The notes below the pieces were generated by a model, which was not told where the DNA came from, did not search any database, and saw only the letters and a program-made list of their open reading frames with translations. From assembly GCA_000004985.1 (NCBI GenBank), contig GG738899.1: 64,000 nucleotides of DNA. One strand, written 5' to 3'. Shown one piece after another: positions 19,955 to 61,503 of this stretch (position 1 is the first letter of the stretch; each line of letters starts with the position of its first letter). A program made the translations under genes and the position numbers. This DNA is from Naegleria gruberi (taxonomy: Eukaryota).

Positions 19955-21258
19955 TTGGCTGAACGATGTAATTTTGCAGTCTTTTCAGGTAACCTTCCTC
20001 GAAATAGCTCCCCTCCAAAGAATATATTTGTCTATGATTTGAACAAGTATGATATTTGTGATATTGTTGCTGGTGAGGATTTTGCAATCTTTGTTAATAG
20101 AGCTGGAAATTGTTATTTATTGGCTGATGGAATAGAGGACAAATCTAAAAAGTGGAAGGTTTGGATGGGATTGGAAGATGTTGAATTGAATGGGAAAGAT
20201 GCTGTTTTGATACCATTTACTGTGGAAGATCCTATTGAGATGGTATTTGCTCATTCGTTTTGTGTACTTGTAAATAGACATGGTCAGGTTTATTACTTTC
20301 CAGAATATGATAATAATAACACCATAGGTAGCCAACCAACTCTTCTTTCAAAATTGAGTATGGATTTGTTTGGAGGAGAGAGGATTGTACATTGTGGACT
20401 TGGAAATGAACATGCCTTGTTTTTGACTGAAAGTGGAAAGGTGTTTGGAAGTGGAGCTAATTGTAAGTAGTTTAAATTTGATTTGATATATTGATTGTGT
20501 TAAAAGCTAGCGGACAATTGGCCAATGCAAAGTGGTATTCTGATCAAAAGTTTGTTCAATTACCAACTGACCATATTCCAGACAAGATTGTAAAGGTTTT
20601 TGCTACTTATAACACCTCATTTGTGCTTACAGAAAATAATGAAGTTTGGAGTTGTGGAGATACTACTTATAATGCCTCTGGTCACAAGGCCAACCAAAAT
20701 AACAAAACAACTGAGCTTGTGAAAATTCCAATAGATGAGAAAATCGTAGATATAGAGCCAGGTCTATTTTTCGTGGCCTTTAAAACAATAGGTGACAAGT
20801 ATCTTGTTTTTGGTTATAACAACTTTTCACAATTTGGAAGATCGGAAACCTTGGCTGAGAGAATTGATGGTCCTCATCCATTAGATACCTTCCCTAATGA
20901 AAATATTCAAAAAATAGTATGTGGAGGTTACAATTCAATAATTATTTCTCAAGATAGAAAATATTATTCAGCTGGATGGACCATCGATGCCCCTTTCTAT
21001 CCATCAAAAGAAAATTTTTACAATCTTATTGACATGCAAAGGTTTTTAGGAATTAGAAGACCATTCACAGATTCATCAGTAGAATTGTGTGCAACTATGG
21101 GACGATACTTCTCAATCTTTTTTTCCAGGGATAGTGCAAGAAGACCTCTCAATTTCAAGAAATCTTTCAAAATTTGTGATATTCTCATCAAGACACAAAA
21201 TGGTGGAGATGTAGTTGGACAAGAAGAATATTCAAACTTTATGTATTCAAGTGATTAA
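19955..21258 (+). CDS. RCC1-repeat (beta-propeller) protein, 2 exons 19955-20462 and 20507-21258
   Basis: GTAAGT donor at 20463 and AAAAG acceptor at 20506 join the two ORFs in frame. Repeated '...HALFLTESGKVFGSGAN', 'VWSCGDTTYNASGH' RCC1-like blades. Confidence 0.65.
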
Positions 21259-26087: not shown

Positions 26088-29000
26088 ATGACAGAAAAGT
26101 GTAAAACCTATGAGAGAGATGGTCAATGTAATAACGAAAATTGTACACTGATTCATCAGACGTGTCCAAAATTTAGATCACGAGAAGGATGCTCCGAAGG
26201 TTCTTCCTGTCCATTGATTCACAATAGAAAGGTCTTTCAGAAAGATTGCCCTCGTGGTGAGTCATGTAATCAAGGATTGGCATGTAAATATTTCCATCGG
26301 AGAAGTGTTAATTTCACACAACAACAACAAAAACCTCCACTGCAACAACAACATTCTAATCATCAATTTAGGGAGAGAACCAAAGCAAATGAAAGTTCAT
26401 CAAATTTCAATGAAAAGAGAAAGTTTGAAAGAGATTATGATAGACGATCAAATAGAAAATTGGATCAAGTAGAAATTACCAGTAGCAGTAGTAATAGTAG
26501 TAATAGTACTAATTTCGGAAACGTTGATACAGAGGGAGATTATATTATGAAAGAAAATTCCTCTACATCTTTTAATGTGGAAGAAGAAATTGAAATTGTG
26601 GAGGATGTGAAGAAAATTGATTTGCTTCCGAACTCTACTACTAATAACCTATTTGTGTTGAAGGTGGATAAAAGAGATATTTCCGATGAATCTGCAAAGC
26701 TGCTAGGAGATGAAAAATCCATGATACTAATGGTGGAACAAGTAAATGCAGAGTTTGATAAAAAGAAGGAAGAATTGACAAGAAAATTATTAGATATGGT
26801 TGATGATAGAGAAGAACTTGCCACAGAAGGACCAATTATTAGAAATGAACGTAAACTATTGGAGAAACAACAAGCAAATTTCCAGAGACAAGTTCAGCAA
26901 ATTTTTTCACTCAAAGACCAGTATCCACTCTCTACAATTTTACATGCACTCTATAGAGAATGCTGCCGAGGAATGAAGAGCCTTCCTTTGTATGCATTTA
27001 GATCTGATATTATTGCAAGTTTACAAAATAATAATGTCATTATTTGTATTGGTGAAACAGGCTCTGGTAAATCTACACAAATTCCTCAATACATTCTCGA
27101 GGAAGGATATGGAAGATTTGGTAAAGTAGTGTGTACAGAACCTAGAGCAGTTGCTGCAATGTCTCTTACAAAGAGAATTTCTCAGGAAATGTCCATTAAG
27201 GAAAATAGTCTAGTGAGCCATAATTTATATGGAAAGGTTAATAACTGGTCCGATTTACTATTCATGACTGATAGAAAGTTATTGAATGAATTTCAAAATG
27301 ATGCTCTACTCTCAAAATATTCAGTTATCATTGTCGATGAAGCTCACGAAAGAAATCTATGTTCCGACATTCTAATTTCACTATTGAAGGAATGTGTAAT
27401 CAAGAGAAGTCAATCAACAACTCTAAATCCACTCAAATTAATTATAACTTCAGCAACTATTGATGAAAATCTATTTTCAACATTCTTTAATAATTGTCCA
27501 GTTATTAAAGCTCCTGGAAGAATGTATCCAGTGGATGTTTATTGGACTAAACAAAGAAAAGAAGATTACGAACAAGCAGCTGTTCAAAAAGTGTTAGAGA
27601 TTATTTCAAACAACAAATTGGAAGGTGACATTTTGGTATTTCTAAGCTCACCAGACGAAATTGATAGATGTATTAAGAAATTAGAATTTCACTCAAGGGA
27701 AAACAGAGCTCTTTCTCGCTGTTTGATTCTTCCACTCCATGGAGCACTCACGCCTGAAGAACAAGAAAGAGTATTCGAAAGAGTAAATTCTAGAAGAATA
27801 ATCTTTTCAACACGTATTGCTGAAAACTCTGTCACTATTGATGGTGTGAAAATCATTGTGGACACTGGTGTTTCACGAGAAAAATTCTACGATCAACAGA
27901 GAAACATGTCTATTCTCAAAGTGAATAATATTAGTCAAAGTTCTGCCATTCAGAGAAAGGGAAGAGCTGGTAGAACTTCATCAGGTGTATGTTTCAGATT
28001 ATTTTCCGAACAAGACTTCTCCTCAATGAGTGTAAATCCAACTCCAGAAATTTTGAATTCTAATTTAGGATTGACTTTATTGAGATTATTTTCAGCTGGT
28101 GTGAAAAATGTATTGGAATTTGATCTAATTGAAAAACCTAATCTGGAGGATATGAAGAAATCTCTCAAGAATTTAACCGACTTGCAATTTGTGGATGAGA
28201 AGCAAAACATTACACAAATGGGTAAGCAAGCTTCCAAGATGGAAATTGAACCTTCTCTTGCAAGAATGATAATTGAGGGAATTAATTTAGGAATTGGAGA
28301 TGAAATTATTCAACTAGTGTCCATTATGTCATTCTCCAACATGATCTATGCAAAATCTAAGTCTACAGATTATTTAGAAAAAGATATTATGAAAGTCTCA
28401 ACTTCAAAGGAAGGTGGTGATCTGATAACACTTCTTCACATCTTCCAAGGATTTCTTCAAGCAAAAGATAAGCGAAGATATGCAAAAGATGGAAATTTCA
28501 GTCTGAAAACATTGATCCAAGCAGAAGAAACCATGACAGATATTAGGAAGAGATTGAATTTTGAAAGATCTAGCAATAGTGAATCAAAAACAGTTGAATC
28601 CATTCAAGAAATAATTACCAGATGTGTTTGTTGTAGCATGTTTGATAATTTTGCCTATTTTCATGGCATTATTAATGGAAAGAGAGTTTACAAAATTCTC
28701 TCATCAAATATGGAAGCTTTTATTCATGGTTCATCATTTTCTAATTATTCAAGCGAGCCAATTGACTATGTAATATATGGAGAATTAGTCAAGACGGAGA
28801 AACTATTTATGAAAAATGTAACTCCTATTTCTTTAGAGTCAATCAAACCATTCATTACTTTCAATCAATCTCTAAATGTTGTAAAGAAGAAAGTGATATA
28901 TCCACTCACCAGAGGAATATTCGATTGTTTAAATGCCAATAACGGAGCATTGTTAGAATATTTAAGATTGAATATTGGATCAATTGTTGAAATGGACCCA

Positions 29001-31100
29001 GATAGAAACGAACTCGTTGTATATTTATCTGAAGGAGATCAAGTCGAAACAATCCTCAAATATGTTTATGATACAGCTGTTCAAAGATCAAATAATGAAT
29101 TCCTCGAACATCAAGTTGATTCAAAAGTAAGAGCCCTGATTGGAAGAGGAATGCAAGTTGTCAAATTACTTTTTCCAGGAGAGTTTGTAAAATGCAATAT
29201 TCTTAATATCCCAAATATGGATTATAATCACATGAGGGAAGTATTCGAGATGCATAATCTTCCAATACTCGATTGCAAACTATTCTTTGAATTGCCATCC
29301 AATAGGTATGGGACTGTAATTTTTGATTCTCCACAAACATCCAAGAAAGCTCGTGAATTATTTTCTGATTGTCAAGAGTTTCGTATAACCACAAGTGATT
29401 CAACAATAGTTCCAGAAGAAAAAGAAATGAAAAACTATCCACTCAACATTTATTTCTACTCTGAGCACGATGGTAAATGTTTCATCTATTCAGATAACGC
29501 CAATGCCCTAAACATTATTCAATCTCAGTACCTTTATGGTCAAAAGATGTTCCGTAATATTGAAAAGAAAAACCTAAAAATTGCAAACTTATCCTTCACA
29601 CTTGATGAGCACAGAATTAGAGATTTCATTCCAAGAGAACTTCATAACGATATCAGGATAGTTATGAATAGAGATAGACTTGGTAAGGAACAAGAAAATC
29701 AATTTGTTAAAAAGATGGTCAACACTATTAGACCAATGATGGAACTTTTTGGAGAATTGGAAATGTTTGAGTATGTTCCAACCAAAGACCTTGTAGGACA
29801 GTACAAGATATTGGCCAAGTTTACCAACTTGGAAAGTACAATGACAGCAATGAAAAGTTTAAATGGAGCTAGCGTCGGTGACAAGTTTATTTGGGTGGAA
29901 CCTGAATTTACGGACATCATACCATTCCCACTTGATTTGGACACTGATAATTTATTTAGAGAAGAGTTAAGGAAAATGATGAAGGAAATTTTTTCTGTTT
30001 ATGGATGCAGGTCTGGAATGTTTGAAATGAAGAATGGAAGACAAAAGGCTTTGAAAGTTAGAGCAAATTCAGAAGAAGGACTTACTAGAGCAATGGCTAT
30101 CGCTCACAAATATCTAAAGCCATATGTTCTAAAATTGGGAGTATTCGATTTCTCTATTGCATTCAAGAAAAAGTTTAGAATTCTTGAATTGACCAAAAAC
30201 TTCAAAGCTTATATTGACTTTGATATTAAGAATAATAATGTCAATATTTATCAACTCGGAATTAATCAAATGAAAGATATTGTCACTACTATTCTACAAG
30301 AAATTAGAAATTCCAATAAGGACATTATCAAGTTAACTCAATTGAAACCAATTATTGGAAATCAAGGAAAAGTTTTAAAATCTCTGCAAGAAAAATATGG
30401 AGGAAGAATTGATTTTGATTACAAACAAAAAATTATTTCTATTAACAGTTCAGATCAAGAGGAAATCAATAATTTTAAACAGGAAATTAGAAATATATTA
30501 GAAAGCCACCAAACTACCAACGAAGAAATATCTCCAGAAGACTGTCCAATCTGTTATGGACCAAAAGAGAATCCAGTTCTCTTATCGTGTGGCCATTCAC
30601 TTTGTAGAGATTGTTTTATATGTCAACTTGATCAAATGACATTTAATTGTTGTGAATGTGACAGTTTGCTAACCATTCCAGAAATCAATCTTTCTCAGGA
30701 TTTGAATTTAATTGAAAAACAAGCTCAGTATGCCGTTGAAAAATATCTTGAAAGACATCCAAATGATTTTAAACACTGTTCATCAGCTCATTGTTCTGGA
30801 ATTGTCTGCATTGATCAAAGTCAAGTAGCTCACTGTCAATCCTGTAACAAAACTTATTGTATCAAGTGTAATGAACCTCCACACCCTGGATTGGATTGTT
30901 CTAATGAGGAAGAAGCTCTAATCATTGAGTGGAAGAAGGCCAACACAAAACCATGTCCAAAATGTAAAAATAATATTGAGAAGAATGGAGGATGCAATCA
31001 CATAACTTGCTATTATTGTGGAGCTCACTTTTGTTGGTTGTGTGGATTTTTGGCCAATGGGGCTGTTGGTGTTTATACACATTTACAAACGTGTAGATAA
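26088..31100 (+). CDS. CCCH zinc-finger – DEAH-box RNA helicase – RBR (RING1-IBR-RING2) E3 ubiquitin-ligase fusion protein (plant DEAH11/12-like architecture)
   Basis: 1670-aa ORF. N-terminal C-x-C-x-H fingers. Helicase motifs 'GETGSGKSTQIPQ', 'VIIVDEAHERN', 'STRIAENSVTIDGV', 'QRKGRAGR'. C-terminal 'CPICYG..CGHSLCRDCF' (RING1), IBR, and 'CPKCKNNIEKNGGCNHITCYYCGAHFCWLCG' (RING2 catalytic Cys). Confidence 0.85.
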   Translation: MTEKCKTYERDGQCNNENCTLIHQTCPKFRSREGCSEGSSCPLIHNRKVFQKDCPRGESCNQGLACKYFHRRSVNFTQQQQKPPLQQQHSNHQFRERTKANESSSNFNEKRKFERDYDRRSNRKLDQVEITSSSSNSSNSTNFGNVDTEGDYIMKENSSTSFNVEEEIEIVEDVKKIDLLPNSTTNNLFVLKVDKRDISDESAKLLGDEKSMILMVEQVNAEFDKKKEELTRKLLDMVDDREELATEGPIIRNERKLLEKQQANFQRQVQQIFSLKDQYPLSTILHALYRECCRGMKSLPLYAFRSDIIASLQNNNVIICIGETGSGKSTQIPQYILEEGYGRFGKVVCTEPRAVAAMSLTKRISQEMSIKENSLVSHNLYGKVNNWSDLLFMTDRKLLNEFQNDALLSKYSVIIVDEAHERNLCSDILISLLKECVIKRSQSTTLNPLKLIITSATIDENLFSTFFNNCPVIKAPGRMYPVDVYWTKQRKEDYEQAAVQKVLEIISNNKLEGDILVFLSSPDEIDRCIKKLEFHSRENRALSRCLILPLHGALTPEEQERVFERVNSRRIIFSTRIAENSVTIDGVKIIVDTGVSREKFYDQQRNMSILKVNNISQSSAIQRKGRAGRTSSGVCFRLFSEQDFSSMSVNPTPEILNSNLGLTLLRLFSAGVKNVLEFDLIEKPNLEDMKKSLKNLTDLQFVDEKQNITQMGKQASKMEIEPSLARMIIEGINLGIGDEIIQLVSIMSFSNMIYAKSKSTDYLEKDIMKVSTSKEGGDLITLLHIFQGFLQAKDKRRYAKDGNFSLKTLIQAEETMTDIRKRLNFERSSNSESKTVESIQEIITRCVCCSMFDNFAYFHGIINGKRVYKILSSNMEAFIHGSSFSNYSSEPIDYVIYGELVKTEKLFMKNVTPISLESIKPFITFNQSLNVVKKKVIYPLTRGIFDCLNANNGALLEYLRLNIGSIVEMDPDRNELVVYLSEGDQVETILKYVYDTAVQRSNNEFLEHQVDSKVRALIGRGMQVVKLLFPGEFVKCNILNIPNMDYNHMREVFEMHNLPILDCKLFFELPSNRYGTVIFDSPQTSKKARELFSDCQEFRITTSDSTIVPEEKEMKNYPLNIYFYSEHDGKCFIYSDNANALNIIQSQYLYGQKMFRNIEKKNLKIANLSFTLDEHRIRDFIPRELHNDIRIVMNRDRLGKEQENQFVKKMVNTIRPMMELFGELEMFEYVPTKDLVGQYKILAKFTNLESTMTAMKSLNGASVGDKFIWVEPEFTDIIPFPLDLDTDNLFREELRKMMKEIFSVYGCRSGMFEMKNGRQKALKVRANSEEGLTRAMAIAHKYLKPYVLKLGVFDFSIAFKKKFRILELTKNFKAYIDFDIKNNNVNIYQLGINQMKDIVTTILQEIRNSNKDIIKLTQLKPIIGNQGKVLKSLQEKYGGRIDFDYKQKIISINSSDQEEINNFKQEIRNILESHQTTNEEISPEDCPICYGPKENPVLLSCGHSLCRDCFICQLDQMTFNCCECDSLLTIPEINLSQDLNLIEKQAQYAVEKYLERHPNDFKHCSSAHCSGIVCIDQSQVAHCQSCNKTYCIKCNEPPHPGLDCSNEEEALIIEWKKANTKPCPKCKNNIEKNGGCNHITCYYCGAHFCWLCGFLANGAVGVYTHLQTCR

Positions 31101-41873: not shown

Positions 41874-41971
41874 TTTTTTCTCTATTTCTATTTTTCTGTG
41901 ATATAAAGCACCTTAATTAATATCAGTTGTGGACTAGATCTATTAGCAACTTATTTTCTTCTTGAATAACT

Positions 41972-42043
41972 TCCCGTGTAGTCCAATGGCTAGGATACCT
42001 GGCTTTCACCCAGGAGGTCCGGGTTCAATTCCCGGCATGGGAG
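41972..42043 (+). tRNA. tRNA-Glu (anticodon TTC), copy 1
   Basis: TCCCGTGTAGTCCAATGGCTAGGATACCTGGCTTTCACCCAGGAGGTCCGGGTTCAATTCCCGGCATGGGAG: 7-bp acceptor stem, anticodon loop CTTTCAC, T-arm GGTTCAATTCC. Confidence 0.9.
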
Positions 42044-42117
42044 GATAATTTTGCAAAAGATAATTTATTTGGTAACCTTTTATTAATGGAAAGGGTTATT
42101 GAAATGGAACAGTTGAC

Positions 42118-43115: not shown

Positions 43116-45680
43116 ATGGTCAAGTTCAGTAAAGAAATACTCGAAAGGCTCTTACTCGACAGTAACAAGATTCGTAACATTAGTATTATTGCTCACGTTG
43201 ATCATGGTAAATCAACACTCACTGATCAATTGGCTTTAGCAGCTGGTTTAGTGGATGAAGATGCTGCAGGTGAGAAGAGAGTTTGCGACGTCGATAAGAA
43301 TGAAATTGAAAAGGGTATTACCATTAAATCAACAAGTTTGAGTATGGTATTGGAAAATCCAGACAAGGAGAATGATCATCATTTGGTTAATTTGATCGAT
43401 TGTCCAGGTCACATTGATTTCTCATCTGAAGTTAGTACAGCTTTGAGAATTACTGATGGTGCAGTGTTGATTGTTGATGCTGCTGAAGGTTGTAGAGGTC
43501 AAACTGAAACAGTAATTAGACAATCTCTTCAAGAAAGAATTCGTCCAGTTCTCTTCATTAATAAGGTTGACCGTTTGATTGAAGAAATGCAATTTACTGA
43601 AGAAGAAAGTTATCAAAACTTTTTAAGAATTATCGAGTCTGTGAATGCTCTATTATCAACTTATTCTGATGAGTCAGTTTCTGTTGATCCAGTTGACTGT
43701 AACATTGCTTTTGGATCAGGTAAGATGGGTTGGGCTTTCACTTTGGAGCAATTCGCTCAATTATATAGCAAGAAGTTTAAACTTCCTGTTGAGAAGGTTA
43801 TTAACAAATTATGGGGTGAAAATTATTATGATCACTCAACTAAGAAGTTTACCACTGAACCTTATTCATCGACAAGTGGTCAACAATTGAAACACACTTT
43901 CTGTGAATTCATTTTAGAACCTATTTTCAAGATTTTCAAGTTGGTTAGAGAACATCAAATTTCGAGTGAAGGTATTTTGCCAACAGATTTGGAAAATATC
44001 ATTAGTGCATTGTCTATACCTCTGACGAAAGAAGAAAAGAGAAAGGAGCCGAAACTTTTAGCTAAATCAATCATGAGAAAGTTCCTACCAGCTCACAAAC
44101 CTCTAGTTCAAATGATTATTAACCATTTACCTTCTCCTAAGGAAGCTAAAAAGGTCAGGTATGATAATCTCTACACTGGTGAAGATTTGACAGATCCATA
44201 CGCTACTGGTATTAAGGAATGTGATCCGAATGCACCACTGGTTGTCTATGTCAGTAAGATGGTACCTATGCACTCTAATACTAGCTCTAGTATGAGTAAT
44301 AATGTTGGTCGTTTTATTGCTTTAGCTCGTATCTTCTCTGGCAGTTTGACTCAATCAACTAAGGTAAGAATTCTGGGTCCTAACTATGATCCAATTGCTA
44401 AGAAAGATGTTTTCCATACAAGCATTCAAAGATTGTTAGTCATGGTTGGTAAAAATACTGAAAGCATCACTCAAGCTTCTTGTGGTGCCATCGTCGGTAT
44501 TGTTGGTCTTGACAAGTACATTATCAAATCATGTACATTGACAGAAGAAGGACAAGTTGCATGTATGCCAATTAAGAATATGAAATACTCTGTGAGTCCT
44601 GTTGTTCAAATGGGAGTTGAGCCAGCCAATCCAGCTGATTTATCTCGATTTGTTGAAGGTTTGAAACGTCTCGTTCAAAGTGATCCTCTATTGGAATGTA
44701 AGCAAAATGATAGTGGTCAACATATTCTAGGAACAGCAGGTGAATTGCATTTGGAAATTTGTTTAAAGAATTTGGAAGAAGAATATGCAAGAGGAATTCA
44801 AATTAAAAAGTCTCCTCCTGTTGTCACTTTCCACGAAACAGTTTCAAATAAGAATGGAGACATGGTCATGGCCAGAAGTGCAAACGGTCACAATCGTTTA
44901 TACATGCAAGCTGAACCAATCAGTGAGGAATTGATTGAAATGATTAAGGAAGGTCAATTGCCAATGGATGATCAAAATAAGAGAGCAAAGATTTTAGAAA
45001 TTGACTTTGAATGGGATCCTAGCATAACAAAGAGAATTTGGAGTTTTGGACCTGAAGCTGATAAGGGTAGTAACATTTTGGTTAATGCAACCAAGTCAGT
45101 TGACTATATTAATGAAATTCAACAATATGTTGTCACTAGTTTCCAACAAAGCAGTTCTTCAGGAGGTTTATGTGATGAAGCAATGAGAGGTGTTTTATTC
45201 AAATTTAATGATTGTAATCTTCATGCAGATTCTATCCATCGTGGAGCTGGTCAAATTCTCCAAGCAACATCACGTGTCATGACTGCTAGTCAATTGAGAG
45301 CTGATCCAAAGTTAGTTGAACCAATGTATCTTGTTGAAGTTCAATGTCCTCAATCAGTGATGGGTTCTGTCTATAGTGTCATTTCCAATAGAAGAGGTGT
45401 TATCAAATCTACTGAAATGGTAATTGGTACTCCTCTCGTTAGTATTACAGGTAATTTACCTGTGCTGGAAAGTTTCGGTTTAACAGAAGAGTTGAGAGGT
45501 GTGACTCAAGGACAAGCTTTCCCTCAATGCAGTTTCAGTCATTGGAAAGTAATGGAAGACAATGTTTATGATCCTCAATCTAAAGTTCACAAGCTCATCA
45601 AATCTATCAGAAAGAGAAAGGGTCTTAAGGAAGATATACCACTCTACACAGATTACTGTGATGCAATGCCTAAACAATAA
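43116..45680 (+). CDS. elongation factor 2 family GTPase, divergent eEF2 paralog
   Basis: 854-aa intron-less ORF. G-motifs 'AHVDHGKST', 'DCPGHIDFSSEVSTALRITDG', 'NKVDR'. The diphthamide-loop 'HADSIHRGAGQI' and C-terminus '...SIRKRKGLKEDIPLYTDYCD' match eEF2, but the overall sequence is much more diverged than canonical eEF2. Confidence 0.8.
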   Translation: MVKFSKEILERLLLDSNKIRNISIIAHVDHGKSTLTDQLALAAGLVDEDAAGEKRVCDVDKNEIEKGITIKSTSLSMVLENPDKENDHHLVNLIDCPGHIDFSSEVSTALRITDGAVLIVDAAEGCRGQTETVIRQSLQERIRPVLFINKVDRLIEEMQFTEEESYQNFLRIIESVNALLSTYSDESVSVDPVDCNIAFGSGKMGWAFTLEQFAQLYSKKFKLPVEKVINKLWGENYYDHSTKKFTTEPYSSTSGQQLKHTFCEFILEPIFKIFKLVREHQISSEGILPTDLENIISALSIPLTKEEKRKEPKLLAKSIMRKFLPAHKPLVQMIINHLPSPKEAKKVRYDNLYTGEDLTDPYATGIKECDPNAPLVVYVSKMVPMHSNTSSSMSNNVGRFIALARIFSGSLTQSTKVRILGPNYDPIAKKDVFHTSIQRLLVMVGKNTESITQASCGAIVGIVGLDKYIIKSCTLTEEGQVACMPIKNMKYSVSPVVQMGVEPANPADLSRFVEGLKRLVQSDPLLECKQNDSGQHILGTAGELHLEICLKNLEEEYARGIQIKKSPPVVTFHETVSNKNGDMVMARSANGHNRLYMQAEPISEELIEMIKEGQLPMDDQNKRAKILEIDFEWDPSITKRIWSFGPEADKGSNILVNATKSVDYINEIQQYVVTSFQQSSSSGGLCDEAMRGVLFKFNDCNLHADSIHRGAGQILQATSRVMTASQLRADPKLVEPMYLVEVQCPQSVMGSVYSVISNRRGVIKSTEMVIGTPLVSITGNLPVLESFGLTEELRGVTQGQAFPQCSFSHWKVMEDNVYDPQSKVHKLIKSIRKRKGLKEDIPLYTDYCDAMPKQ

Positions 45681-46019: not shown

Positions 46020-46100
46020 TGCAGAAGGTGGGATTTGAACCCACGAAGCTTGCGCAGTAGAACTTGAGTCTACCCCCTTTGACCACTCGGGAACCCCTGC
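46020..46100 (-). tRNA. tRNA-Leu (anticodon CAA), class II with long variable arm
   Basis: Reverse complement GCAGGGGTTCCCGAGTGGTCAAAGGGGGTAGACTCAAGTTCTACTGCGCAAGCTTCGTGGGTTCAAATCCCACCTTCTGCA. D-loop GAGTGGTCAAA, anticodon loop CTCAAGT, T-arm GTGGGTTCAAATCCCAC. The acceptor stem has two G-U pairs. Confidence 0.7.
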
Positions 46101-50165: not shown

Positions 50166-50237
50166 TCCCGTGTAGTCCAATGGCTAGGATACCTGGCTTT
50201 CACCCAGGAGGTCCGGGTTCAATTCCCGGCATGGGAG
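50166..50237 (+). tRNA. tRNA-Glu (anticodon TTC), copy 2
   Basis: 72/72 identical to copy 1. Shared immediate flanks: 'gaataac' upstream and 'gataattttgc.aagataatt' downstream. Confidence 0.9.
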
Positions 50238-51530: not shown

Positions 51531-52925
51531 ATGATAAGTGAATCGAGAGGAAGAGCACAATTTTTCATTGGCATATTGCAGTGGCCAGTTCTAGTGTGGG
51601 CAATTTTGAATTTAGCTACAGGAATACTGGGCATGATTGTGTATGGTGCATTTACAGCCAGTTATGGACCCGTCTATATTGTGAATCAATTTGTTGGCTT
51701 GTGGTTGTGTGTCTTATTGACCTTTTTTAGTGCACAAACAGTGTATATTGAATTGAAGCCAGGCGATTCGAGTGAGCGAAGAATTCTCAGAGTGATTACT
51801 TTGGTGGTGAACATTCTGTATTTTGGTGTCATCCTGGTTGGTTCATTCATTCTATTTGTGTTATATTCGAGAGCTGGAACTCGTCCTGATGCTATTGTCT
51901 GGACAATTTTGATTATGATTATTTGTTTGCTGAATGTTATTGCTTTGATTTGCAGATGGTATTCAAGTGTTGGAGCTGGAAAGGAATTCATTCCAGACGA
52001 ATCAAAATGTTTTCAACTCATTAAGGAAAAGTCTGCTGGTGCATCTGGTGTTAGCATGTGTTTGTACATTACTGCCATTGTGGTGAATGTATTGTTGAGA
52101 TTCATCTTTTTGATTTTCCTTGGATTGTTGATTAGTGGCAGTTCTGCTGCTTCTAATATTAAGAATTATCCAATGAAGGGAAAACTAATTTCAGTTCCAT
52201 TGAACGATGGTTCAGGAAGAAGTCAAAACATTCACTATTTGTGCGAGGGTCCAACTGAGGGAAATTCATTCACATTCCTCTTTGAAGGAGATTTCACACA
52301 TGGTTATGCTGATTATTATGATATTCAAAGATATTTGACAGCTCTTGGTCGTCGTTCTTGCATTTATGATAAACCAGGCTTAGGATATTCTGACTATTTG
52401 TACAAGGACCAAAAGGATGAATCTACATTTTACTACAACTTTTTAACGAGTATTGGAGAAAAGACTCCATATGTCATGGTTGGCTGGGGAGGTGGTGGAC
52501 ATATCATTTACAAATTTGCTTTGGAACATCCTGAACTAGTCAAGTCGCTCACTTTCCTAGATGTTTTCCCACCTGGAATTGAATTTACCTCAATGAAGGA
52601 TTTGAAAAATTGGAGTCAAGAGCAATTTAATACGTACAAGAACCAAGAATTGAGAGGAAGAAGAACCTTATTTGGAATTATCAATGGATTGGCAGTTCCG
52701 TGGGGACTCATGTCTATCTTTGTTGGATCATCATCCAATACCAGCAATGCAGATGAAATTACTTTCTGGATGAGCACTGAAAAGACATGGATTACTCAAT
52801 CATCAGTTCTCGATACAGCATATGCTGACACTGGATCCTATCTGAAACAAAATCTCACATCCACCATAAGTGTCAATTTGGTTGTTACCAAGCATGATGA
52901 TAATTGGGTCATTAAGAATAATTAG
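51531..52925 (+). CDS. polytopic membrane protein with C-terminal alpha/beta-hydrolase-like domain; the ORF probably continues to 53123 through an in-frame TAG
   Basis: 464-aa ORF with at least 6 predicted TM helices in the N-terminal half, then '...KTPYVMVGWGGGGHIIYKFALEHPELVKSLTFLDVFP' (hydrolase-like GxSxG-position motif). A 66-codon open frame follows the TAG at 52923-52925. Confidence 0.55.
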   Translation: MISESRGRAQFFIGILQWPVLVWAILNLATGILGMIVYGAFTASYGPVYIVNQFVGLWLCVLLTFFSAQTVYIELKPGDSSERRILRVITLVVNILYFGVILVGSFILFVLYSRAGTRPDAIVWTILIMIICLLNVIALICRWYSSVGAGKEFIPDESKCFQLIKEKSAGASGVSMCLYITAIVVNVLLRFIFLIFLGLLISGSSAASNIKNYPMKGKLISVPLNDGSGRSQNIHYLCEGPTEGNSFTFLFEGDFTHGYADYYDIQRYLTALGRRSCIYDKPGLGYSDYLYKDQKDESTFYYNFLTSIGEKTPYVMVGWGGGGHIIYKFALEHPELVKSLTFLDVFPPGIEFTSMKDLKNWSQEQFNTYKNQELRGRRTLFGIINGLAVPWGLMSIFVGSSSNTSNADEITFWMSTEKTWITQSSVLDTAYADTGSYLKQNLTSTISVNLVVTKHDDNWVIKNN

Positions 52926-53518: not shown

Positions 53519-54904
53519 ATGCCAAGGATTGTGGATTCTCATCAAATACTTTTGAGTTTGATCTTGTTGGCCCTAATATTTCACATAGTAACTTGTTCAT
53601 CATCACAGCGGACACAGGATCATGAAGTGAAACGATGCATCAATTACTCACCCATCTTCTTCAATACTAAGAATATCGATGTTGCAGTGGCTTCCGAAGA
53701 AAATCACTACAAGATCCTTCTTCCCTATTTGAAACAGCATGGTGTAAATTGTATAAGATTGTACTTTACTGATTGGAGGAGGTATCATGCCGATTTCTTC
53801 AAAGTTGTGAACGAGTTACACATGAAGGTTATGATTACATTCTGGCAATACACTGATTCGACTCCAAATCTTGCAGATTCCAAGGAGAGACAAAAGACGC
53901 ATGATGATGCAGTCTTTTTGTTCAAGACAATTTCGACAGAACCTTCAGTTTTTATGATTTTCTATGGAAATGAATTGGATTTGATCTATCCCTATCAAAT
54001 TCCACTAGTTTTCGTTGCATTTCAGGAATTTATAGATTTGCAACGACAGGTAATTCCAGATCCAACGAAGAGAAAATCACTTTCTCTTCCATTATCTGAT
54101 TCTGGTTTTAATTTGAAATATGTTGCTGATTATGATTGGGTTCAAGCAGATTATAACACTTTTAACATTTATAGAGGTTCGACATTTCTTGACTTTGTGG
54201 AATCGTACAAGATGGTCAATCCGAGCAAACCTCTCATTATAGCCGAAACTGGTGCTTCTTCATACTATCAGTTTCCACATCAAATACCAAAACCTTATTA
54301 TGTTTACAATGCAAGTGATCCAAGTATTCAATTGGGAGAACGATATCAAGCCATGAATCATCAAAGAGTCTTGATGGAATATATTGCCTCTTCGGTGGTC
54401 AACCCAGGTTTATTGGATGTTTTATGTTTATTCGAAGCAACAGATGAATATTGGAAAACTTCAAATGATCTCAATCCATATTGTCAGTCAAGGGATGGTC
54501 ATTTAGCTTCAAGACAGAATACCTGCGGATATCAAAATGTTAATTACAAGGACAAGATGATTCATGAGGCATTTCTGGGTTTGATGCGTCAGGATTATTC
54601 GAAAGATGAATTTTCACTCATTCCAAAACCTTCATTCAATGTGATGAGTTTTTACTATAGAAGTATGGAGAATATCAGTCAGTGGTCATGTGAAATATCT
54701 CAGAGTGGCTGGAATTCAGACATTTTGAACACGAGAATAGTGCCAGATATTGTGTATAATGTTCCATACGAAACCTTACGATTATTTGAAACTGTATTTC
54801 AAACCAAGATTGGAGAGAAGATATTCACTTGTAAATTTAAAGGAAAAATGGAAATATTACAAGCCCTTCCTCTTAAAATGAATCTTTACAATTACCATAT
54901 ATAG
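53519..54904 (+). CDS. secreted clan GH-A glycoside hydrolase / transglycosylase (GH72- or GH17-like beta-1,3-glucan-active enzyme)
   Basis: Signal peptide 'ILLSLILLALIFHIVTCSSS'. '(K)QHGVNCIRLYF' (GvNxiRvY), 'MIFYGNELD' (acid/base NE) and 'LIIAETGASS' (nucleophile E) are spaced as in (beta/alpha)8 GH-A enzymes. Confidence 0.55.
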   Translation: MPRIVDSHQILLSLILLALIFHIVTCSSSQRTQDHEVKRCINYSPIFFNTKNIDVAVASEENHYKILLPYLKQHGVNCIRLYFTDWRRYHADFFKVVNELHMKVMITFWQYTDSTPNLADSKERQKTHDDAVFLFKTISTEPSVFMIFYGNELDLIYPYQIPLVFVAFQEFIDLQRQVIPDPTKRKSLSLPLSDSGFNLKYVADYDWVQADYNTFNIYRGSTFLDFVESYKMVNPSKPLIIAETGASSYYQFPHQIPKPYYVYNASDPSIQLGERYQAMNHQRVLMEYIASSVVNPGLLDVLCLFEATDEYWKTSNDLNPYCQSRDGHLASRQNTCGYQNVNYKDKMIHEAFLGLMRQDYSKDEFSLIPKPSFNVMSFYYRSMENISQWSCEISQSGWNSDILNTRIVPDIVYNVPYETLRLFETVFQTKIGEKIFTCKFKGKMEILQALPLKMNLYNYHI

Positions 54905-54915
54905 ATTTTACTGCT

Positions 54916-57900
54916 TTGGATGATTTTTGGAATATTTTCATGCTGGTTTTATTTGTATCTTTTATAACCTATATAATTATCTATCAGGTATTAGATAGAT
55001 TGGGATTGAGTTGTAAAATTTGCTGTTCTTTCTGTAGATGCAGTGGTGGACTTTTCATTTCAGAAATTGATGGAGACTTCGATTGGAAACCAAATGAATC
55101 TCTATTAGAAAGGATACAAATACAGAATGTACTCTTTCTTGCTTACAATTTTACAGAATATCTCAAGAATATGGATCATACATTTTCTGCTCCGCAATTA
55201 TTCCAAAAATTTTACAAGAATGAAATTAATGTTGAAGGTTTAAATCAATTTTGTAGATATGAAGGCCCAAAAAGATCAACATTTGTAAGAATACTTGAAT
55301 GGTTGCTTCCAGATCCAAAAAGCTTGTTTCCCTATATGGAAACTAAATATATTAGCAACTTAAATTCAATTCCCATGACAACTTGTAATTGGATAAGACA
55401 TTTAATTTGCCATTTCAATATTTATCAGATTTTCCTCAGATTGTTGCTATTTACTATCCTTCTTAACGGAACTCCACTTATTAATTTATTAATTTACATT
55501 GACTTTTATTTTAGTTTAGGATATAAGGCAATTCAATTAATTTACATTCTCTCTTCATTTATTCCAAGAAATGGACAAAGTTTTATTGGAATGATTATAA
55601 GATTTATTAGATTCTTCGGATGGATTCAAATTGTGGAAACCATTGCCATGATTTTAGTCATTTCATTTTTTAATCATGAAAACGAAACTGTGTTACTCTA
55701 TGAATTTAATGGAGAAAGATATAATTTTATTCGATTCTTCAACTATGACGGTTTTGATATCGTGTATTCTCACAATTCTGTTATCATTCTTGTAGTCACT
55801 GTTGCTTTTGAGATTGTGAAAGAGTTTACAAAATTTGTACTTTTTTGGAAAACTAGTTTAGAAGAAAGAGGAAACAAGGTTTTGAAAATTCTTTACAATA
55901 TTTCCTTTTTCCAAACCTATCTCTTTATTCATGTACTAGGATCTGTGCTGTGGTTCAGTAGATTATTTAGTGGACTATTATCAATTAATTCGATTTGTAT
56001 TGCAAATATTGGACAAGATGAAACTATGTGTGAAATTGTGATTTTACCTTTCGTATTTTGTTTTGGGTTTATGTGCACGATTGCTATTTCTTCGTATATC
56101 TATACTTTGCTTATTATAACCATTTCGAATTTAATAACTGTTTTCGAGGGAATTAGAATTGGAAAATCGAAACCTAAAAAGGTTAAGAAACCAAAAACAA
56201 AATCTATTCAGTTGACGGAAATGGCCATAGAACGCTTGATTTTGGATGAGACACAACCACAGCAGCAAGATCACATTTTGAAAGTTTGTTATCCATCTGA
56301 TTCTCAACCAACGATTGAAAATTTAGTCAACCTGGACACACAAATTGAAAAGAGTTTTCAAGATTTTTCTGCAGCAGAAAGAGATTATTTGCAATGTATT
56401 TACAAATCTGGTCTCCAGAGATTAATTCCCTTCCAAAAGCACAAGAAAACCACGCTTGACATTGTTGTGGTTCTTTGTGCTGAACAAGTTTATTCCAAAG
56501 ATGATGAAAGTAGAACGAAATTTAAATGGATATCAGATAGATTCAAACTTGATACACTCAATAGAACACAAGATGAAATAAGAAAGATCATGTCTTTAAA
56601 GGAGCAAACCATTTACAAAACTGTGAAAGGTCTTGCGGATTTCAAGAAGGGAATGGAAGATTACTATTCTATTTTGGATTGCAATGAGGAAGACAGAATT
56701 TCAGTGAATTATTATCTTTGTTTACAAAAATATCATGGGCTAGATGAAAACTACTTCCCAAAGATCGAAGAGGACATGTCAGAAATCCAGAAAAAGAGAA
56801 TTCAATCAGAAATTGACTTTACCAACGAAATTAATGAATTATGTATGGAATTTCCATTCATTAGAAGAATATATGAAAAGCAAATATCTGATCAGTTTAT
56901 CAAGATTGAACATCTTGACAGCTATTTCAACAACTGCCAAATACTAGACTCTGTCAAACTTCAAAGGAAAATCAATTGTAAATTTTATGGAGAAGGTAAA
57001 TCCATGAACCAACTGAACAGTGCCATGTTCCTCAAGGGAAAATACATGCTCTCCCTCGACTCCAACATGGACGCTTACTATTTCGAAGGTATCAAATTCC
57101 CATGCTTGATGCAAGAAGTCATGAACTCGAAAAGTCACATTTTTGGAATGAGAACTCACACCTACACTGCTTTTACTTCTCAGGTTGGAAAGAACATGGC
57201 CTGTGCTGAGCATGTCTTTGTGGCCACATGTTACAAAGCCATGTGTCTGCTCGGCAGTAGATTGCACTATGGAAATGCCGATATTTTAGATAGAGAATTC
57301 TTTATTGAGAAGGGTTTATTTGCAGATGCGGATCGATATCTGAATTTGAGTGAGGATGTGTTTCTTGGAAAGAGATGTCTTAAATTTGGAGGAATTATTC
57401 GATACTCTGAGGGTGTTACGTTTGGTAAGGGAAGAGAAACTAACCTGAAGGAATCTGCTGGGTTCTATACAAAGATTGCTGGAGGTGCTGCCATGCAGTC
57501 GAGTTCAAGTATCGAATACGAATTGAATAGTTCATTGCCTCTTTGTATGTTGATGCCACTCTAGTGTTGGATTCTTCTCCTTGCATTTATTTATTGACAT
57601 TTCGATCATTCTAGCTCCTATTTTATACGTCTTGTTGAGCATCTTTGGGGTTTCGTATACTACATTGGATACTTTGAATTCATCATTTGCAAAAATTTGG
57701 GTTCTTCCATTCTACCTTGTCACTTTACTTCCACTCGTGCTGGAAAGCTTAGTTCAGGGCTACAGCTATGCTAACTGGGTTGATTACCTTCTCTCTTTCC
57801 CATTCTTTGCTTTCATTGACAGATTAATGTCATACAGTTATTTGACAGGAACATTTTTAGAGAAGGTGACCTATGTATCAACCGCCAGAGAAACTGGCCA

Positions 57901-58714
57901 CGCTCCAGCCAATGTTCATGACCTGATGCACAGCTACTACTTTACTACATTCAGAAGTTGTCTATTCCAATTGGTTACCTTCTTAATTTTCATTCAAGTT
58001 ATGGGAATTGATAAGATTTTATACATTGGCTTACCGATACTCAATTGGGCAAGTTGTTTGGTAGCTCCATTCCTATTCGAAAACCTAAAAATTTCTCATT
58101 TACATGATTGGCTAGATATTAAGAATGATTTACTCAAACAATGGAATGAATTCTATGCCGAATCATTTTATGAAGGAAATGTCAAGAAAAATAAGCATTT
58201 TCTATTGAAATGGTTCAATTATGGAAGATTGAGGATGCTGAAGTATGTTTATCCAATTATATTCCAAATGGCATTGCTGTATCCTATTTGCTATGTGTCT
58301 GTTTTGACTATTGCATCGGATTTCCAAGAAAAGACAAAGACAAATGCCTATTTTTGGTTTGTTATGACTTCTCCTTTCCAATTCATTTTGGGAATTACCT
58401 TATCTGTTAGATTATTGAAATCCAAACACAAAATATTTGGTTTCTTAATGTTGGTCAGTGAGGCAATCTTATTCTTTTTTGAATCCATTAATGGTGGTGG
58501 TTTCATTACGCTGTCAAAAGTCTTTTTAGGAATCCACAGTCTTTTCATTATCATGTCAGTGTTTTACATTTTGGTTTTGTTTATGGATTTGATTTGGAAA
58601 TCTGGAAGATTGTACCTTGAAGCTGAATTCTTTATTGTGAAACTCATAACCTATCCAGCTCTATTATTTGCCGTTGGAGTTCAAGTCATTTCGAGAGGAG
58701 TCCACAATATGTAA
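54916..58714 (+). CDS. GT48 / FKS1-like (1,3-beta-glucan synthase-related) polytopic membrane protein; reading frame disrupted at ~57555-57580 (ORFs 54916-57564 and 57581-58714)
   Basis: First ORF: TM cluster plus a cytoplasmic domain with FKS-like motifs 'YMLSLDSNMDAYYFEGIKF' (cf. IQLIDANQDNYLEE), 'GKNMACAEHVFVATCYKAMCLLGSRLHYGNADILD' (cf. [30 protein letters not shown]), and 'LNLSEDVFLGK...SEGVTFGKGRE..' (cf. LHLNEDIYAG...QCGKGRDLG). The second ORF lies in the +1 frame and encodes a further TM cluster, as at the FKS C-terminus. Confidence 0.55.
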
Positions 58715-58850: not shown

Positions 58851-59951
58851 TTAAACCATTTGATGAGTCATTGGAATGGTAGATGTGGAAAATTGTGGCA
58901 TGAATTGATCTACAAGTATTACTCCTCTATTTCTGAAAAATTCCCTCATATAAGTAGCTCCACTCATCACATCATCTGGAGTCAACTCGAGTGGCTTTGA
59001 AATATTCACCTTCTTTCCATCCTTACTAATCAAAGAAAGGCAAAAATCTGGTTTCTTTCCATCAGAAATCTTGTGAGCTCTAATATCATGAATTTGATCG
59101 TATGGAATTGAATAGGTTGAGAAAATGAAATGTTCTCTCAAATATCTAGCTCTACTTGTCATTCTTACTTCTCTCTTTTCATCATCAAATTCAATAATTG
59201 TAATCTTTTCATAATAAACAATCAAAAATAGAGCAATTGGAGCTGTTACAATGTAAATACCTGCCAAAATAGCCAAACTCAACACCAAAATAATGCACAA
59301 TATGACCATCAATATGAGAACTCCCTCTCCATCACAATTCCAACCGCTACCTGAACAACAATCTGTACAGGAACAGCAGCCACCACAACAACCTCCACAG
59401 CAACCACCTCTAGATCTGGAAGTGGCAGCTACAGCAATTGCAGCTTTTTGATTGGATGTCAAATTTGTTCCATTACCATTGGTTGACAAATCTTCAGATG
59501 GAAGCATTGTAATGTGTGAAATTTGGTTTTTCAAACTGCAAACTCTGAAACAACCAAGAGTTGCACAAAACAAGTAAGTGAGCATGCTGTCTTGATTTTG
59601 CAAGATTAATTCATGTAGAGAGGATGACTTTTGACTGATGAGATTTTGGAAAGTTGTGGTTGTCAACTTTTGCTTACCATTCATCATCACATTATTTGCA
59701 GCAACTGGTGGCATTGTCGGTAAAGGTTGTTGCTGTTGTTGAATCATGACAGGTGGTTGATAGATTTGTTGTTGAACATTTGGAATTGTTTGTGGAGAAT
59801 AGTTTACATTCGGTTGTTGATTAGGATATTGTTGTTGAGAATAGTTTACAATTGGTTGATGAAAATTCGGATTATAGACTTTTTCAACATGTTGATAGGA
59901 AGCAGTGGTTGGCTCGACAAATGGTTTGCTGTTTGGGTCTTGTTGTTGCAT
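58851..59951 (-). CDS. Q/P-rich membrane protein with (GGCC)3 cysteine cluster
   Basis: 366-aa ORF. N-terminal Q/P/N-rich low complexity, 'GGCCGGCCGGCCSCTDCCSGSGWNCDG' directly before TM 'VLILMVILCIILVLSLAILAGIYIV', then a C-terminal ~120-aa domain. Confidence 0.5.
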   Translation of the reverse strand: MQQQDPNSKPFVEPTTASYQHVEKVYNPNFHQPIVNYSQQQYPNQQPNVNYSPQTIPNVQQQIYQPPVMIQQQQQPLPTMPPVAANNVMMNGKQKLTTTTFQNLISQKSSSLHELILQNQDSMLTYLFCATLGCFRVCSLKNQISHITMLPSEDLSTNGNGTNLTSNQKAAIAVAATSRSRGGCCGGCCGGCCSCTDCCSGSGWNCDGEGVLILMVILCIILVLSLAILAGIYIVTAPIALFLIVYYEKITIIEFDDEKREVRMTSRARYLREHFIFSTYSIPYDQIHDIRAHKISDGKKPDFCLSLISKDGKKVNISKPLELTPDDVMSGATYMREFFRNRGVILVDQFMPQFSTSTIPMTHQMV

Positions 59952-60447: not shown

Positions 60448-61503
60448 ATGTCCAAATTTGAACTTGAGAATGAATTGTACGAAGCCTTGAAAAAAACACA
60501 AAACAAGGGAGGTGAAGATGATCAACCAACAACAACATTTGCAGAAGAAAATGATGATGCGGAATATGAAGATGATGAAGAATATGATGATGAAGATTTC
60601 GGAGAAGAAGAATATGAAGAAGAAGTTGTAGAAATTAGTGAGAATGAAATGTTAGCCTTGTTGGATCAACAACAAGATCCTTTTGAAGTTTGTCAACAAA
60701 TCTTTGATAAGGAAAAATTATTTGAAGCAAATCCCGAACAAGTCTTGATTGAACCAAATGTAACTGTTCAACATTTTAGAGATTTATATAATAATGGTTA
60801 TGTTGTGGTGGATAATTTCATTCCTTTTGAACAAGCTCAAGAAATTCATGATTTGGCAAAGAAACTTTCACATACTTTTAAACCAGCTTGTGAAATGAAG
60901 ATGAGTTATGAAGATGAAGCAGAGGATACTTTTAGAGATAATACAGCAAGAAGTGATGTGATTCGTTGGTTGCATCCTAAGGATTTTACTTCTGAATTGA
61001 CTGATGAAAGCAAAAAGACATCCCTATCATGTTGTTGTACTGATAGCAGTGAAGATATTATACAATGGAAGGGAAATGAAACTTTGAGAGGAGTTGTTCT
61101 TAACAAGTTTAAAGTCATTCAAAAGAAAATCAATGAATTTGCACCTTGTGTTAAATATGATGATGCTAAAATGGAATTAATGTGGAGCTTGTATAAATCT
61201 CATGGAACTTACTATGAAAAACACAGAGATTCATTCCCAAGCAATGGAAAGGATGAAGGTCCATTGGATCAACGTAAAGTAACTGCCCTCCTCTATATGA
61301 ATACTGAATGGAAAGATGAATCAGATGGTGGCCAATTGAAGATTTTCATCAAACCAGAAAATGCATCCAAACACACTGAAAGAACAACCAAGCTCATTAA
61401 CCCAACTGCTGGTCGTTTAGTTTTATTCTTGAGTGGTGCTCTTGATCATGAAGTGATGGCTTCTTTTAAGGACAGAGTAGCCCTTACTTCTTGGTTGTCA
61501 TAA
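60448..61503 (+). CDS. PHD/EGLN-type 2-oxoglutarate/Fe(II)-dependent prolyl 4-hydroxylase with acidic N-terminal tail
   Basis: 'HRDSF...RKVTALLYMNTEWKDESDGGQLKIF...INPTAGRLVLFLSGALDHEV' parallels PHD2 'HVDNP...[25 protein letters not shown]...[21 protein letters not shown]' (HxD...H triad and basic-residue position). Confidence 0.7.
   Translation: MSKFELENELYEALKKTQNKGGEDDQPTTTFAEENDDAEYEDDEEYDDEDFGEEEYEEEVVEISENEMLALLDQQQDPFEVCQQIFDKEKLFEANPEQVLIEPNVTVQHFRDLYNNGYVVVDNFIPFEQAQEIHDLAKKLSHTFKPACEMKMSYEDEAEDTFRDNTARSDVIRWLHPKDFTSELTDESKKTSLSCCCTDSSEDIIQWKGNETLRGVVLNKFKVIQKKINEFAPCVKYDDAKMELMWSLYKSHGTYYEKHRDSFPSNGKDEGPLDQRKVTALLYMNTEWKDESDGGQLKIFIKPENASKHTERTTKLINPTAGRLVLFLSGALDHEVMASFKDRVALTSWLS

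Follow-up and report, generated by a model that had tools for sequence, protein, structure and literature searches.

Introduction

In fungi, synthases of glycosyltransferase family 48 (GT48) and transglycosylases of glycoside hydrolase family 72 (GH72) cooperate in the cell wall as separate proteins. A glycosylphosphatidylinositol (GPI) anchor is typical of the Gas proteins, which belong to GH72. Euglena gracilis has a glucan synthase-like protein, EgGSL2, which we take to be a GT48 enzyme. The part of PMC8219788 that cites Tanaka et al. 2017 describes this glucan synthase-like 2 as a beta-1,3-glucan synthase needed for paramylon. Among bacterial glycosidases, BuGH158 (PDB 6pal) is an endo-beta-1,3-glucanase acting on beta-1,3-glucan (PMC7157763). 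Here, we analyse a locus at positions 53519-58714 of a 64,000-nucleotide (nt) stretch of Naegleria gruberi contig GG738899.1, which we call the window. The locus holds three consecutive open reading frames (ORFs; Table 1). ORF1 encodes a glycosidase-like protein, and ORF2 and ORF3 together encode a GT48 homologue whose reading frame is broken. An earlier interpretation, made without database searches (the sequence-only reading), had described a linked pair of genes; the ORF positions, strand and frame break that it gave are all present. We find that the locus is probably a single unit, a compact relative, ~1,700 amino acids (aa) long, of the GH72-GT48 fusion proteins of Euglenozoa.

The locus resembles each of the characterised systems in part. 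Like fungal Fks1 and Gsc2 (7xe4, 9wzs), it has a homologous glycosyltransferase (GT) core, with a predicted cytosolic catalytic domain between two transmembrane clusters. Unlike Fks1, it also has a glycosidase-like domain at the N-terminus, predicted to be extracytosolic. This domain shares with the Gas/Gel enzymes of GH72 (Gas2, 2w62; 8pe1) the clan GH-A barrel, an Asn-Glu acid/base and a glutamate nucleophile ~90-100 residues away, and like them it is a predicted extracytosolic enzyme paired with a GT48 synthase. It differs from them in that a Pfam scan of ORF1 shows no further domain, carbohydrate-binding module included, and in that ORF1, if fused, would be anchored by the synthase instead of by GPI. 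BuGH158 has the same N-E...E arrangement (N136, E137 and E220), but it is a soluble bacterial hydrolase of a polysaccharide-utilisation locus, has a C-terminal immunoglobulin (Ig)-like domain and is not linked to a synthase. The comparison with Fks1 plus Gas/Gel that the sequence-only reading had drawn is apt, although here, unlike in fungi, the two activities seem to be tethered covalently.

Results

The closest relatives of the locus are single GH72-GT48 chains

A phmmer search with ORF1 against 1.84 billion representative proteins returned 42 relatives, among them P0004 at E=2.3e-16. The top relatives include proteins of 1,583-3,476 aa in which the ORF1-like domain lies near the N-terminus. 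These long relatives carry an N-terminal Glyco_hydro_72 domain (29.5-51.5 bits; cutoff 25.9) and a C-terminal Glucan_synthase domain (~E=1e-100). The Glyco_hydro_72 scores are 51.5 bits for P0010, 49.8 for P0014, 40.7 for P0019, 39.9 for P0015 and 29.5 for P0004, and all five proteins also carry Glucan_synthase. The fusion proteins match ORF1 at E=2e-16 to 8e-9 and are its best matches in the whole collection.

P0004 comes from Apiculatamorpha spiralis (2,488 aa), which we take to be a free-living prokinetoplastid. P0014 is from Hemistasia phaeocysticola (3,476 aa) and P0047 from Flectonema neradi (2,843 aa); both organisms are presumably diplonemids, as is Namystynia karyoxenos, a further source of ORF1 relatives. 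Two more fusion proteins, P0010 and P0015, are encoded on metagenome contigs. An E. gracilis transcript, P0008 (834 aa), encodes a GH72-like domain followed by a membrane helix and ends before any GT48 domain. Euglenozoa are grouped with Heterolobosea in Discoba. Our literature searches did not find a GH72-GT48 fusion described, in a library that was incomplete; the domain combination itself is visible in public protein sets.

The Naegleria locus can be read along the same lines. A joined model (53519-54830 + 54905-57548 + 57565-58714) is 1,701 aa long with zero internal stops, and it gives two collinear phmmer domains against each of P0004, P0010, P0014, P0015 and P0047. For P0004 the match totals 157 bits, of which the GT48 part contributes 90. 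Over the set of fusion proteins, the Naegleria GT48 half scores 72-90 bits, compared with 58-64 bits against yeast FKS1. The order of parts is also the same: a signal-like stretch, a GH72-like domain, a membrane helix, a transmembrane bundle, GT48 and a second transmembrane bundle. Motifs common to both are GNEL, TE.G, DEWWK/DEYWK, GEGK..NQ, NEDIF/SEDVF and KGRE. Unlike the fusions, the Naegleria protein is ~800-1,800 aa shorter, with a short linker and without several of the GT-domain inserts; its frame is broken, and many positions that are invariant in the fusion proteins have changed.

The glycosidase half belongs to a clan GH-A family near GH72

A direct search of PDB sequences with ORF1 gave no meaningful match. 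The profile of a 22-sequence family alignment retrieved 9fz9 at the top (2e-23), deposited as 'glycoside hydrolase family 2 catalytic domain-containing protein'. It also retrieved Gas2 of GH72 (7.7e-19), 8pe1, deposited as a 1,3-beta-glucanosyltransferase (1.3e-18), and BuGH158 (6pal; 2e-17), while classical GH2 enzymes matched at 1e-14 or weaker. Because of these matches, we place ORF1 in a clan GH-A family between GH72, GH158 and the GH2-like 9fz9. A Pfam GH72 match (E<0.01) is found in 18 of the 22 family members; ORF1 itself falls below the threshold of the Pfam GH72 family (PF03198). At the level of sequence comparison, 'GH72-like' is a fair label for it. The sequence-only reading had offered GH72/GH17-like, of which the clan and the nearness to GH72 hold up in the profile search and GH17 does not, since PF00332 was matched by neither ORF1 nor its relatives.

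The predicted catalytic residues of this family are in place. In the 22-sequence alignment the G, N and E of the acid/base motif GNE are each at least 85% conserved, and all three are kept in Naegleria. The predicted nucleophile E243 aligns through P0002 with Gas2 E275 (in FFSEFG). The two glutamates are 91 residues apart in ORF1, 99 in Gas2 and 83 in BuGH158, and overall ORF1 keeps 30 of the 46 conserved family positions. A hydrophobic stretch covers residues 10-28 by hydropathy. The NE and ETG spacing and a signal-peptide-like N-terminus, both of which had been read from the sequence, are thus present, with E152 and E243 as the paired residues.

The ORF1-type glycosidase module seems to have been recruited repeatedly into glucan-related multidomain proteins. 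P0023 (1,648 aa) joins a GH72/GH2-like domain to a SKN1/KRE6 (beta-1,6-glucan synthesis-associated) domain. P0017 (1,334 aa) joins an ORF1-like domain to beta-helix, fn3 and CARDB domains.

The synthase half is a divergent GT48 homologue

ORF2 matched Pfam PF02364 (Glucan_synthase) with E=2e-31 and 109.5 bits (curated cutoff 37.2), which is the kind of profile search that the sequence-only reading had proposed as a check on the second protein and which assigns it to GT48. P0003, the public model of the GT core, matched the same family with 3e-32 and 112 bits. Against yeast FKS1 (PDB 7xe4), ORF2 gave E=6e-17 and 58-64 bits, with a residue-level alignment. The match also extends into ORF3. We made a repaired ORF2+ORF3 sequence (1,252 aa) by deleting the 16 nt at 57549-57564, and its residues 530-1081 match Glucan_synthase profile positions 115-710 of 819. 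As this match crosses the break, ORF3 is the continuation of the ORF2 protein. On the ORF3 side, the alignment to the euglenozoan-type proteins can be followed as far as residue ~1500 in the 1,701-aa model.

The signature blocks that the sequence-only reading had recognised between two membrane clusters can be confirmed as LDSNMDAY, RLHYGNAD, NLSEDVFLG and FGKGRE, with hydrophobic clusters on both sides. By hydropathy, a crude method, there are ~6-7 hydrophobic segments before the GT core and ~8 after it. In the alignment with FKS1, the equivalents of K1082, N1085, D1102, N1104, E1221 and D1222 are all kept in ORF2, and R1273 is replaced by Ser. For the catalytic and UDP (uridine diphosphate)-glucose-binding roles of FKS1 residues we rely on a 2025 review (PMC12715860). 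The Pfam match begins only at Glucan_synthase profile position 68-115, and a Pfam scan of the repaired synthase matched neither FKS1_dom1 nor any other N-terminal family. A word-indexed homologue search with the GT core as query found only the 447-aa model of N. gruberi itself. With whole ORF2 as query, and a candidate list of 8,000, it found no homologue, and here we suspect that the transmembrane-rich query swamped the candidates. Taken by its sequence, the ORF2 product is a real, highly divergent GT48/FKS-type glucan synthase homologue, and its activity is predicted.

The reading frame is broken by one base

Frame 1 ends at the TAG at 57562-57564. In frame 2 the open stretch starts at 57554, directly behind a TGA (57551-57553). 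On the frame-1 side, 'LNSSLPLCMLM' aligns to 'LNRKLDIFSRF' of the relatives. On the frame-2 side, the residues SSVGFFSLHLFIDISI, encoded from 57560, and SSLAFYCTNLVMAITV of the euglenozoan-type proteins form a gapless alignment. Because these alignments flank it, the shift must lie inside the short stretch between them (57554-57561; TGCCACTC), as a one-base insertion or deletion (indel). The +1 frameshift that had been placed at ~57555-57580 is therefore real in this assembly, and its position can be narrowed.

The rest of the frame is long and open. At the stop-codon frequency of the window, 0.058, stop-free stretches as long as those seen would arise by chance with a probability of 4e-12 (437 codons), 1e-23 (881 codons) and 9e-11 (386 codons, past the break). 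These long frames exclude an old pseudogene, so any inactivation would have to be very recent. The window is part of a draft scaffold, with runs of 50 N each at 235-284 and 3973-4022 and a single N at 6797, which makes a base error at the break plausible. An assembly base error and a very recent lesion of one allele are equally possible causes.

A candidate intron joins the two halves

The sequence-only reading had put the two genes 12 bp apart. This distance holds when it is counted to the listed ORF2 start, TTG 54916, which is only the first start of the bacterial code; the first ATG of ORF2, at 54940, is 35 nt past the ORF1 stop TAG at 54902-54904. The ORF2 frame is open from 54877, so that it overlaps the end of ORF1, and it has no ATG before 54940. 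Elsewhere in the ORF tables, the two gaps between same-strand neighbours that we read are 186 and 593 nt.

The 74-nt segment at 54831-54904 is most likely a spliceosomal intron joining ORF1 and ORF2, as far as this can be judged from its sequence and its surroundings. Its donor is the GT nearest to the ORF1 stop and its acceptor AG is that of the stop codon itself. Its removal drops the stop and puts ORF1 in frame with ORF2, and no shorter in-frame bridge occurs among the GT..AG pairs that we enumerated with donors from 54500 on. The GC content of the segment is 0.26, compared with 0.33-0.36 in its flanks and 33-36% in the window. It resembles an intron at 20463-20506 that we used as an in-window benchmark (44 nt, GTAAGT...AAAAG, 20% GC), whose splicing restores an RCC1-like domain from the ORFs at 19955-20470 and 20491-21258. 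Two further probable introns in the window are at 12067-12144 (78 nt) and 11583-11694 (112 nt). In the ORF2 frame, the residues 'DDFWNIF' before the first ATG are followed by a helix, and P0004 has 'QSFWIEPW' followed by a helix in the same place. A -1 frameshift within 54877-54901, where both frames are open, would also join the frames and is less likely than the AT-rich GT-AG segment. The public ORF1 model is intronless and runs to the stop codon, so the case for splicing here is built on sequence logic and the domain layout of the homologues. With the nearest ORF1 relatives being single GH72+GT48 chains and an in-frame GT-AG segment between the halves, it is probably a mistake to treat the locus as a linked pair of genes, and we favour a single gene with a little more than even confidence.

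Alternative explanations

Several findings weigh against this interpretation of the locus. For the glycosidase half, a Pfam scan of ORF1 gave no family match at a threshold as loose as E<=10, and its AlphaFold model, built on a 2-sequence alignment, was unusable (mean predicted local distance difference test score, pLDDT, 36). In addition 9fz9, deposited as GH2 catalytic domain-containing, outranks GH72 as the solved relative of the ORF1 family. For the synthase half, Y849 and E851 of FKS1 (TPxYxE; VPIYNEP in euglenozoan-type proteins) are not recognisable in the Naegleria protein; MAFFT sets YPSDSQP opposite VPIYNEP, with both Y and E changed, in a region where the alignment is weak. Naegleria GT48 is strongly eroded: of 260 positions that do not vary among five euglenozoan-type proteins, it keeps 101. 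Its changes include HYGHPD to HYGNAD, the loss of the Arg after a conserved Q, and YVSTARETG in place of Y.ATGRGFG, a block invariant among those proteins. The reading frame is broken in the sole sequence at hand, and a word-indexed search of limited sensitivity found no orthologue in other Naegleria species. For the join, the public ORF1 model ends at its stop codon without an intron, and a short GTA..AG bridge might fall in phase by accident in perhaps 3-10% of cases by our rough estimate.

The alternative that survives best is a decaying relic, in which the locus is a pseudogene or under relaxed constraint, the frameshift is real, GT48 is eroding and glucan is no longer made. It would fit either gene structure. 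The frame break in the only assembly argues for it, as do the loss of several GT48 motifs that are invariant in the relatives, the missing orthologue in the same limited search of other Naegleria species, and a score of just 58-64 bits for the GT core against yeast FKS1. There is, however, a single lesion in 5.2 kilobases (kb), with 437, 881 and 386 codons still open. All residues with the closest ties to catalysis are kept, namely ED and D.N, the K and N of GEGK..NQ, and the NE and E of the glycosidase. Moreover, the scaffold is a draft interrupted by Ns, and the break could plausibly come from a miscalled base. We regard decay as possible and rather doubtful.

A second alternative keeps two genes, which would have arisen by fission of an ancestral fusion. 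ORF1 would then be a secreted GH72-like protein, and the GT48 gene would start from ATG 54940, with its first helix as a signal anchor and a non-covalent partnership as between Fks1 and Gas1 in fungi. This agrees with the public annotation, where ORF1 is a complete protein of 461 aa that ends at a stop codon of its own, and the in-frame ATG stands directly before the hydrophobic helix. The positive residues past the helix predict the same orientation whether the protein is fused or unfused. A 3' end and a promoter, however, would have little space in the 35 nt from stop to ATG. Upstream of that ATG the ORF2 frame is open back to 54877 and contains 'DDFWNIF', which resembles the pre-helix motif of the fusions; the AT-rich segment, with its canonical GT and AG ends, connects the frames exactly; and every closest long relative is a single chain. 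We consider two genes unlikely, and somewhat less probable than decay.

The break itself could also be biological in another way, as a 16-nt micro-intron (57549-57564, GTTGATGCCACTCTAG) or a site of programmed +1 ribosomal frameshifting. The segment does run from GT to AG, and its removal restores the frame, which is how the 1,252-aa and 1,701-aa constructs were made. The validated intron in the window is 44 nt long with a GTAAGT donor, however, and the two probable ones are 78 and 112 nt. Removal of the 16 nt also deletes 'SS' and hydrophobic residues that align with the relatives and opens an 8-residue gap in the alignment, whereas a one-base correction would keep them. Programmed +1 frameshifting is known from Euplotes, at AAA-stop sites, and the CTC TAG before and at the stop here is unlike those sites. 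Either version is very improbable. We rejected the 16-nt intron given the 44-nt benchmark and the homologue alignment, which favours a one-base indel; the idea that it belonged to a Stentor-like ciliate fell with the identification of the organism as Naegleria. A 70-nt intron at 57545-57614 was likewise rejected, as FKS1 and the euglenozoan-type proteins have residues homologous to those of frame 2 just past 57560.

The weakest version is that of the sequence-only reading, two linked genes of a dictyostelid with an unexpected callose-like pathway in a cellulose-walled host, whose GT48 and GH-A/GH72-like family calls were essentially right but which we give almost no weight, since ORF1, the GT core and the products of both flanking genes all have identical counterparts among the proteins of Naegleria gruberi. 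N. gruberi is a heterolobosean, and the argument from dictyostelid cellulose walls thus drops out. With GT48 proteins in Euglenozoa, GH72-GT48 fusions included, and the kinship of the two groups within Discoba, the presence of GT48 here is not phylogenetically surprising.

Predicted architecture and implications

If the locus is a single gene, its protein would begin with a signal peptide and an extracytosolic GH72-like domain, which a single membrane anchor and a short linker in the cytosol would connect to the rest, made up of a first transmembrane bundle, the cytosolic GT48 domain and a second transmembrane bundle. By analogy to FKS1, GT48 would polymerise glucose derived from UDP-glucose at the interface of membrane and cytosol, and the beta-1,3-glucan would be threaded through a transmembrane channel of the synthase. 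On the far side, the tethered GH72-like domain, with its retaining NE...E arrangement, might cut and transfer the emerging chain or trim it. The far side may be either the outside of the cell, with its surface or cyst wall, or a storage-compartment lumen.

A broader proposal is that N. gruberi makes beta-1,3-glucan, for a cyst wall or a storage granule, by a single synthase-remodeller chain. The design would be ancestral to Discoba, would predate the split of Heterolobosea and Euglenozoa, and would be the probable ancestor of the paramylon-type synthases of euglenozoans. We put this forward tentatively, as one possibility that is not the likeliest. Naegleria is not known as a maker of paramylon. 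Our literature searches, in the same incomplete library, found no paper on glucan synthesis in Naegleria or on a Naegleria GT48.

The analysis corrects the gene model and, on the single-gene reading, extends the tethered synthase-remodeller design to Heterolobosea, which hints at a Discoba-wide origin. If the broader proposal is true, the covalent fusion common to Naegleria and the euglenozoans would be a natural experiment in coupling synthesis to remodelling. The origin of the euglenozoan glucan synthases would also move deeper into Discoba, and beta-1,3-glucan at some stage of the Naegleria life cycle would become a testable possibility. The medical angle is weak, as the word-indexed search gave no counterpart in N. 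fowleri or another Naegleria.

Coordinates, public annotation and neighbouring genes

Table 1. Features of the N. gruberi GH72-GT48 locus and its immediate neighbours (positions in the window)
Feature	Position	Strand	Description
Upstream neighbour, EFC39470.1/NAEGRDRAFT_52379	51531-52925	+	
ORF1	53519-54904	+	461 aa, ATG start
Proposed exon 1 (aa 1-437)	53519-54830	+	Signal-peptide-like N-terminus, aa 1-28; predicted extracytosolic GH72-like (beta/alpha)8 domain of clan GH-A, ~aa 37-427
G150-N151-E152, predicted catalytic acid/base	53966-53974	+	Aligns with Gas2 G174-N175-E176 through P0002
E243, predicted catalytic nucleophile	54245-54247	+	In PLIIAETG (ETG, residues 243-245); invariant column in the 22-sequence family alignment
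Candidate intron, 74 nt	54831-54904	+	GTAAAT...ATATAG; putative
Proposed exon 2, first part	54905-56220	+	Membrane anchor FWNIFMLVLFVSFITYIIIYQVL, ~135-aa linker and first transmembrane bundle, by hydropathy
ORF2	54916-57564	+	882 aa; listed start TTG
GT48 catalytic core, predicted cytosolic	56221-57553	+	Pfam PF02364 and FKS1 matches
GEGKSMNQ	56989-57012	+	Aligns with FKS1 GDGKSDNQ
LDSNMDAY	57055-57078	+	Aligns with FKS1 IDANQDNY (DAN motif)
NLSEDVFLG	57343-57369	+	NLSEDVF aligns with FKS1 LNEDIY (ED motif)
FGKGRE	57421-57438	+	GKGR block
+1 frame break, TGCCACTC	57554-57561	+	One base more than a continuous frame
C-terminal GT48 part	57560-58714	+	Second transmembrane bundle; degenerate YVSTARETG (57872-57898)
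ORF3	57581-58714	+	377 aa; +1 frame relative to ORF2
Downstream neighbour, EFC39473.1/NAEGRDRAFT_52382	60448-61503		

The public protein set represents the locus in fragments. ORF1 is 100% identical to P0001, a 'predicted protein [Naegleria gruberi]'. P0003 is a 447-aa N. gruberi model identical to the GT core of ORF2; it has the look of a soluble protein and runs from the internal Met at 56221 to the frame-1 stop. Exact look-ups of ORF1, EF-2, P0003 and an 874-aa ORF2 product among assemblies returned no entry. Between the accessions of the two flanking genes, EFC39470.1 and EFC39473.1, there is room for two numbers only. The protein collection contained neither the ORF3 products, searched as three guessed exact sequences, nor the ATG-started product of ORF2, and we found no model in it that covers either transmembrane half of the synthase, including the stretch at 54905-56220. 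With the annotation this fragmentary, cataloguing of carbohydrate-active enzymes (CAZymes) from the protein set would misjudge the gene.

In the product of the upstream neighbour, EFC39470.1, a membrane region of several helices at the N-terminus is fused to a weak match to Abhydrolase_1 (alpha/beta-hydrolase; E=3.6e-5, below cutoff). On the minus strand at 58851-59951, convergent to the synthase, a 366-aa ORF encodes a Q/P/N-rich N-terminus and a Cys-Gly cluster (GGCCGGCCGGCCSCTDCCSGSGWNCDGEG) that precedes a hydrophobic helix. Pfam gave no match for this ORF, and its exact product is absent from the protein collection.

Further away, positions 315-969 of the window hold tandem repeats of 93 nt (31 aa) in ~5-7 copies with a 74-81% match, locally richer in GC. 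The repeat consensus is Cys/Gly-rich and EGF-like in look; the repeats overlap plus-strand ORFs at 208-1218 and 287-1135, and there are ORFs on both strands. A 1,670-aa ORF at 26088-31100 on the plus strand encodes a DEAD/DEAH helicase core with HA2, OB_NTP_bind, KH and C-terminal IBR domains, which suggests the fusion of a helicase with an RBR-type E3 ligase region. The window also encodes a DUF4116 protein, an adenylate/guanylate cyclase and a beta-helix kinase. Three transfer RNA (tRNA) genes lie within 9 kb, tRNA-Glu(TTC) at 41971-42044 and 50166-50237 on the plus strand and tRNA-Leu(CAA) at 46020-46100 on the minus strand, and they flank an intronless EF-2 gene at 43116-45680.

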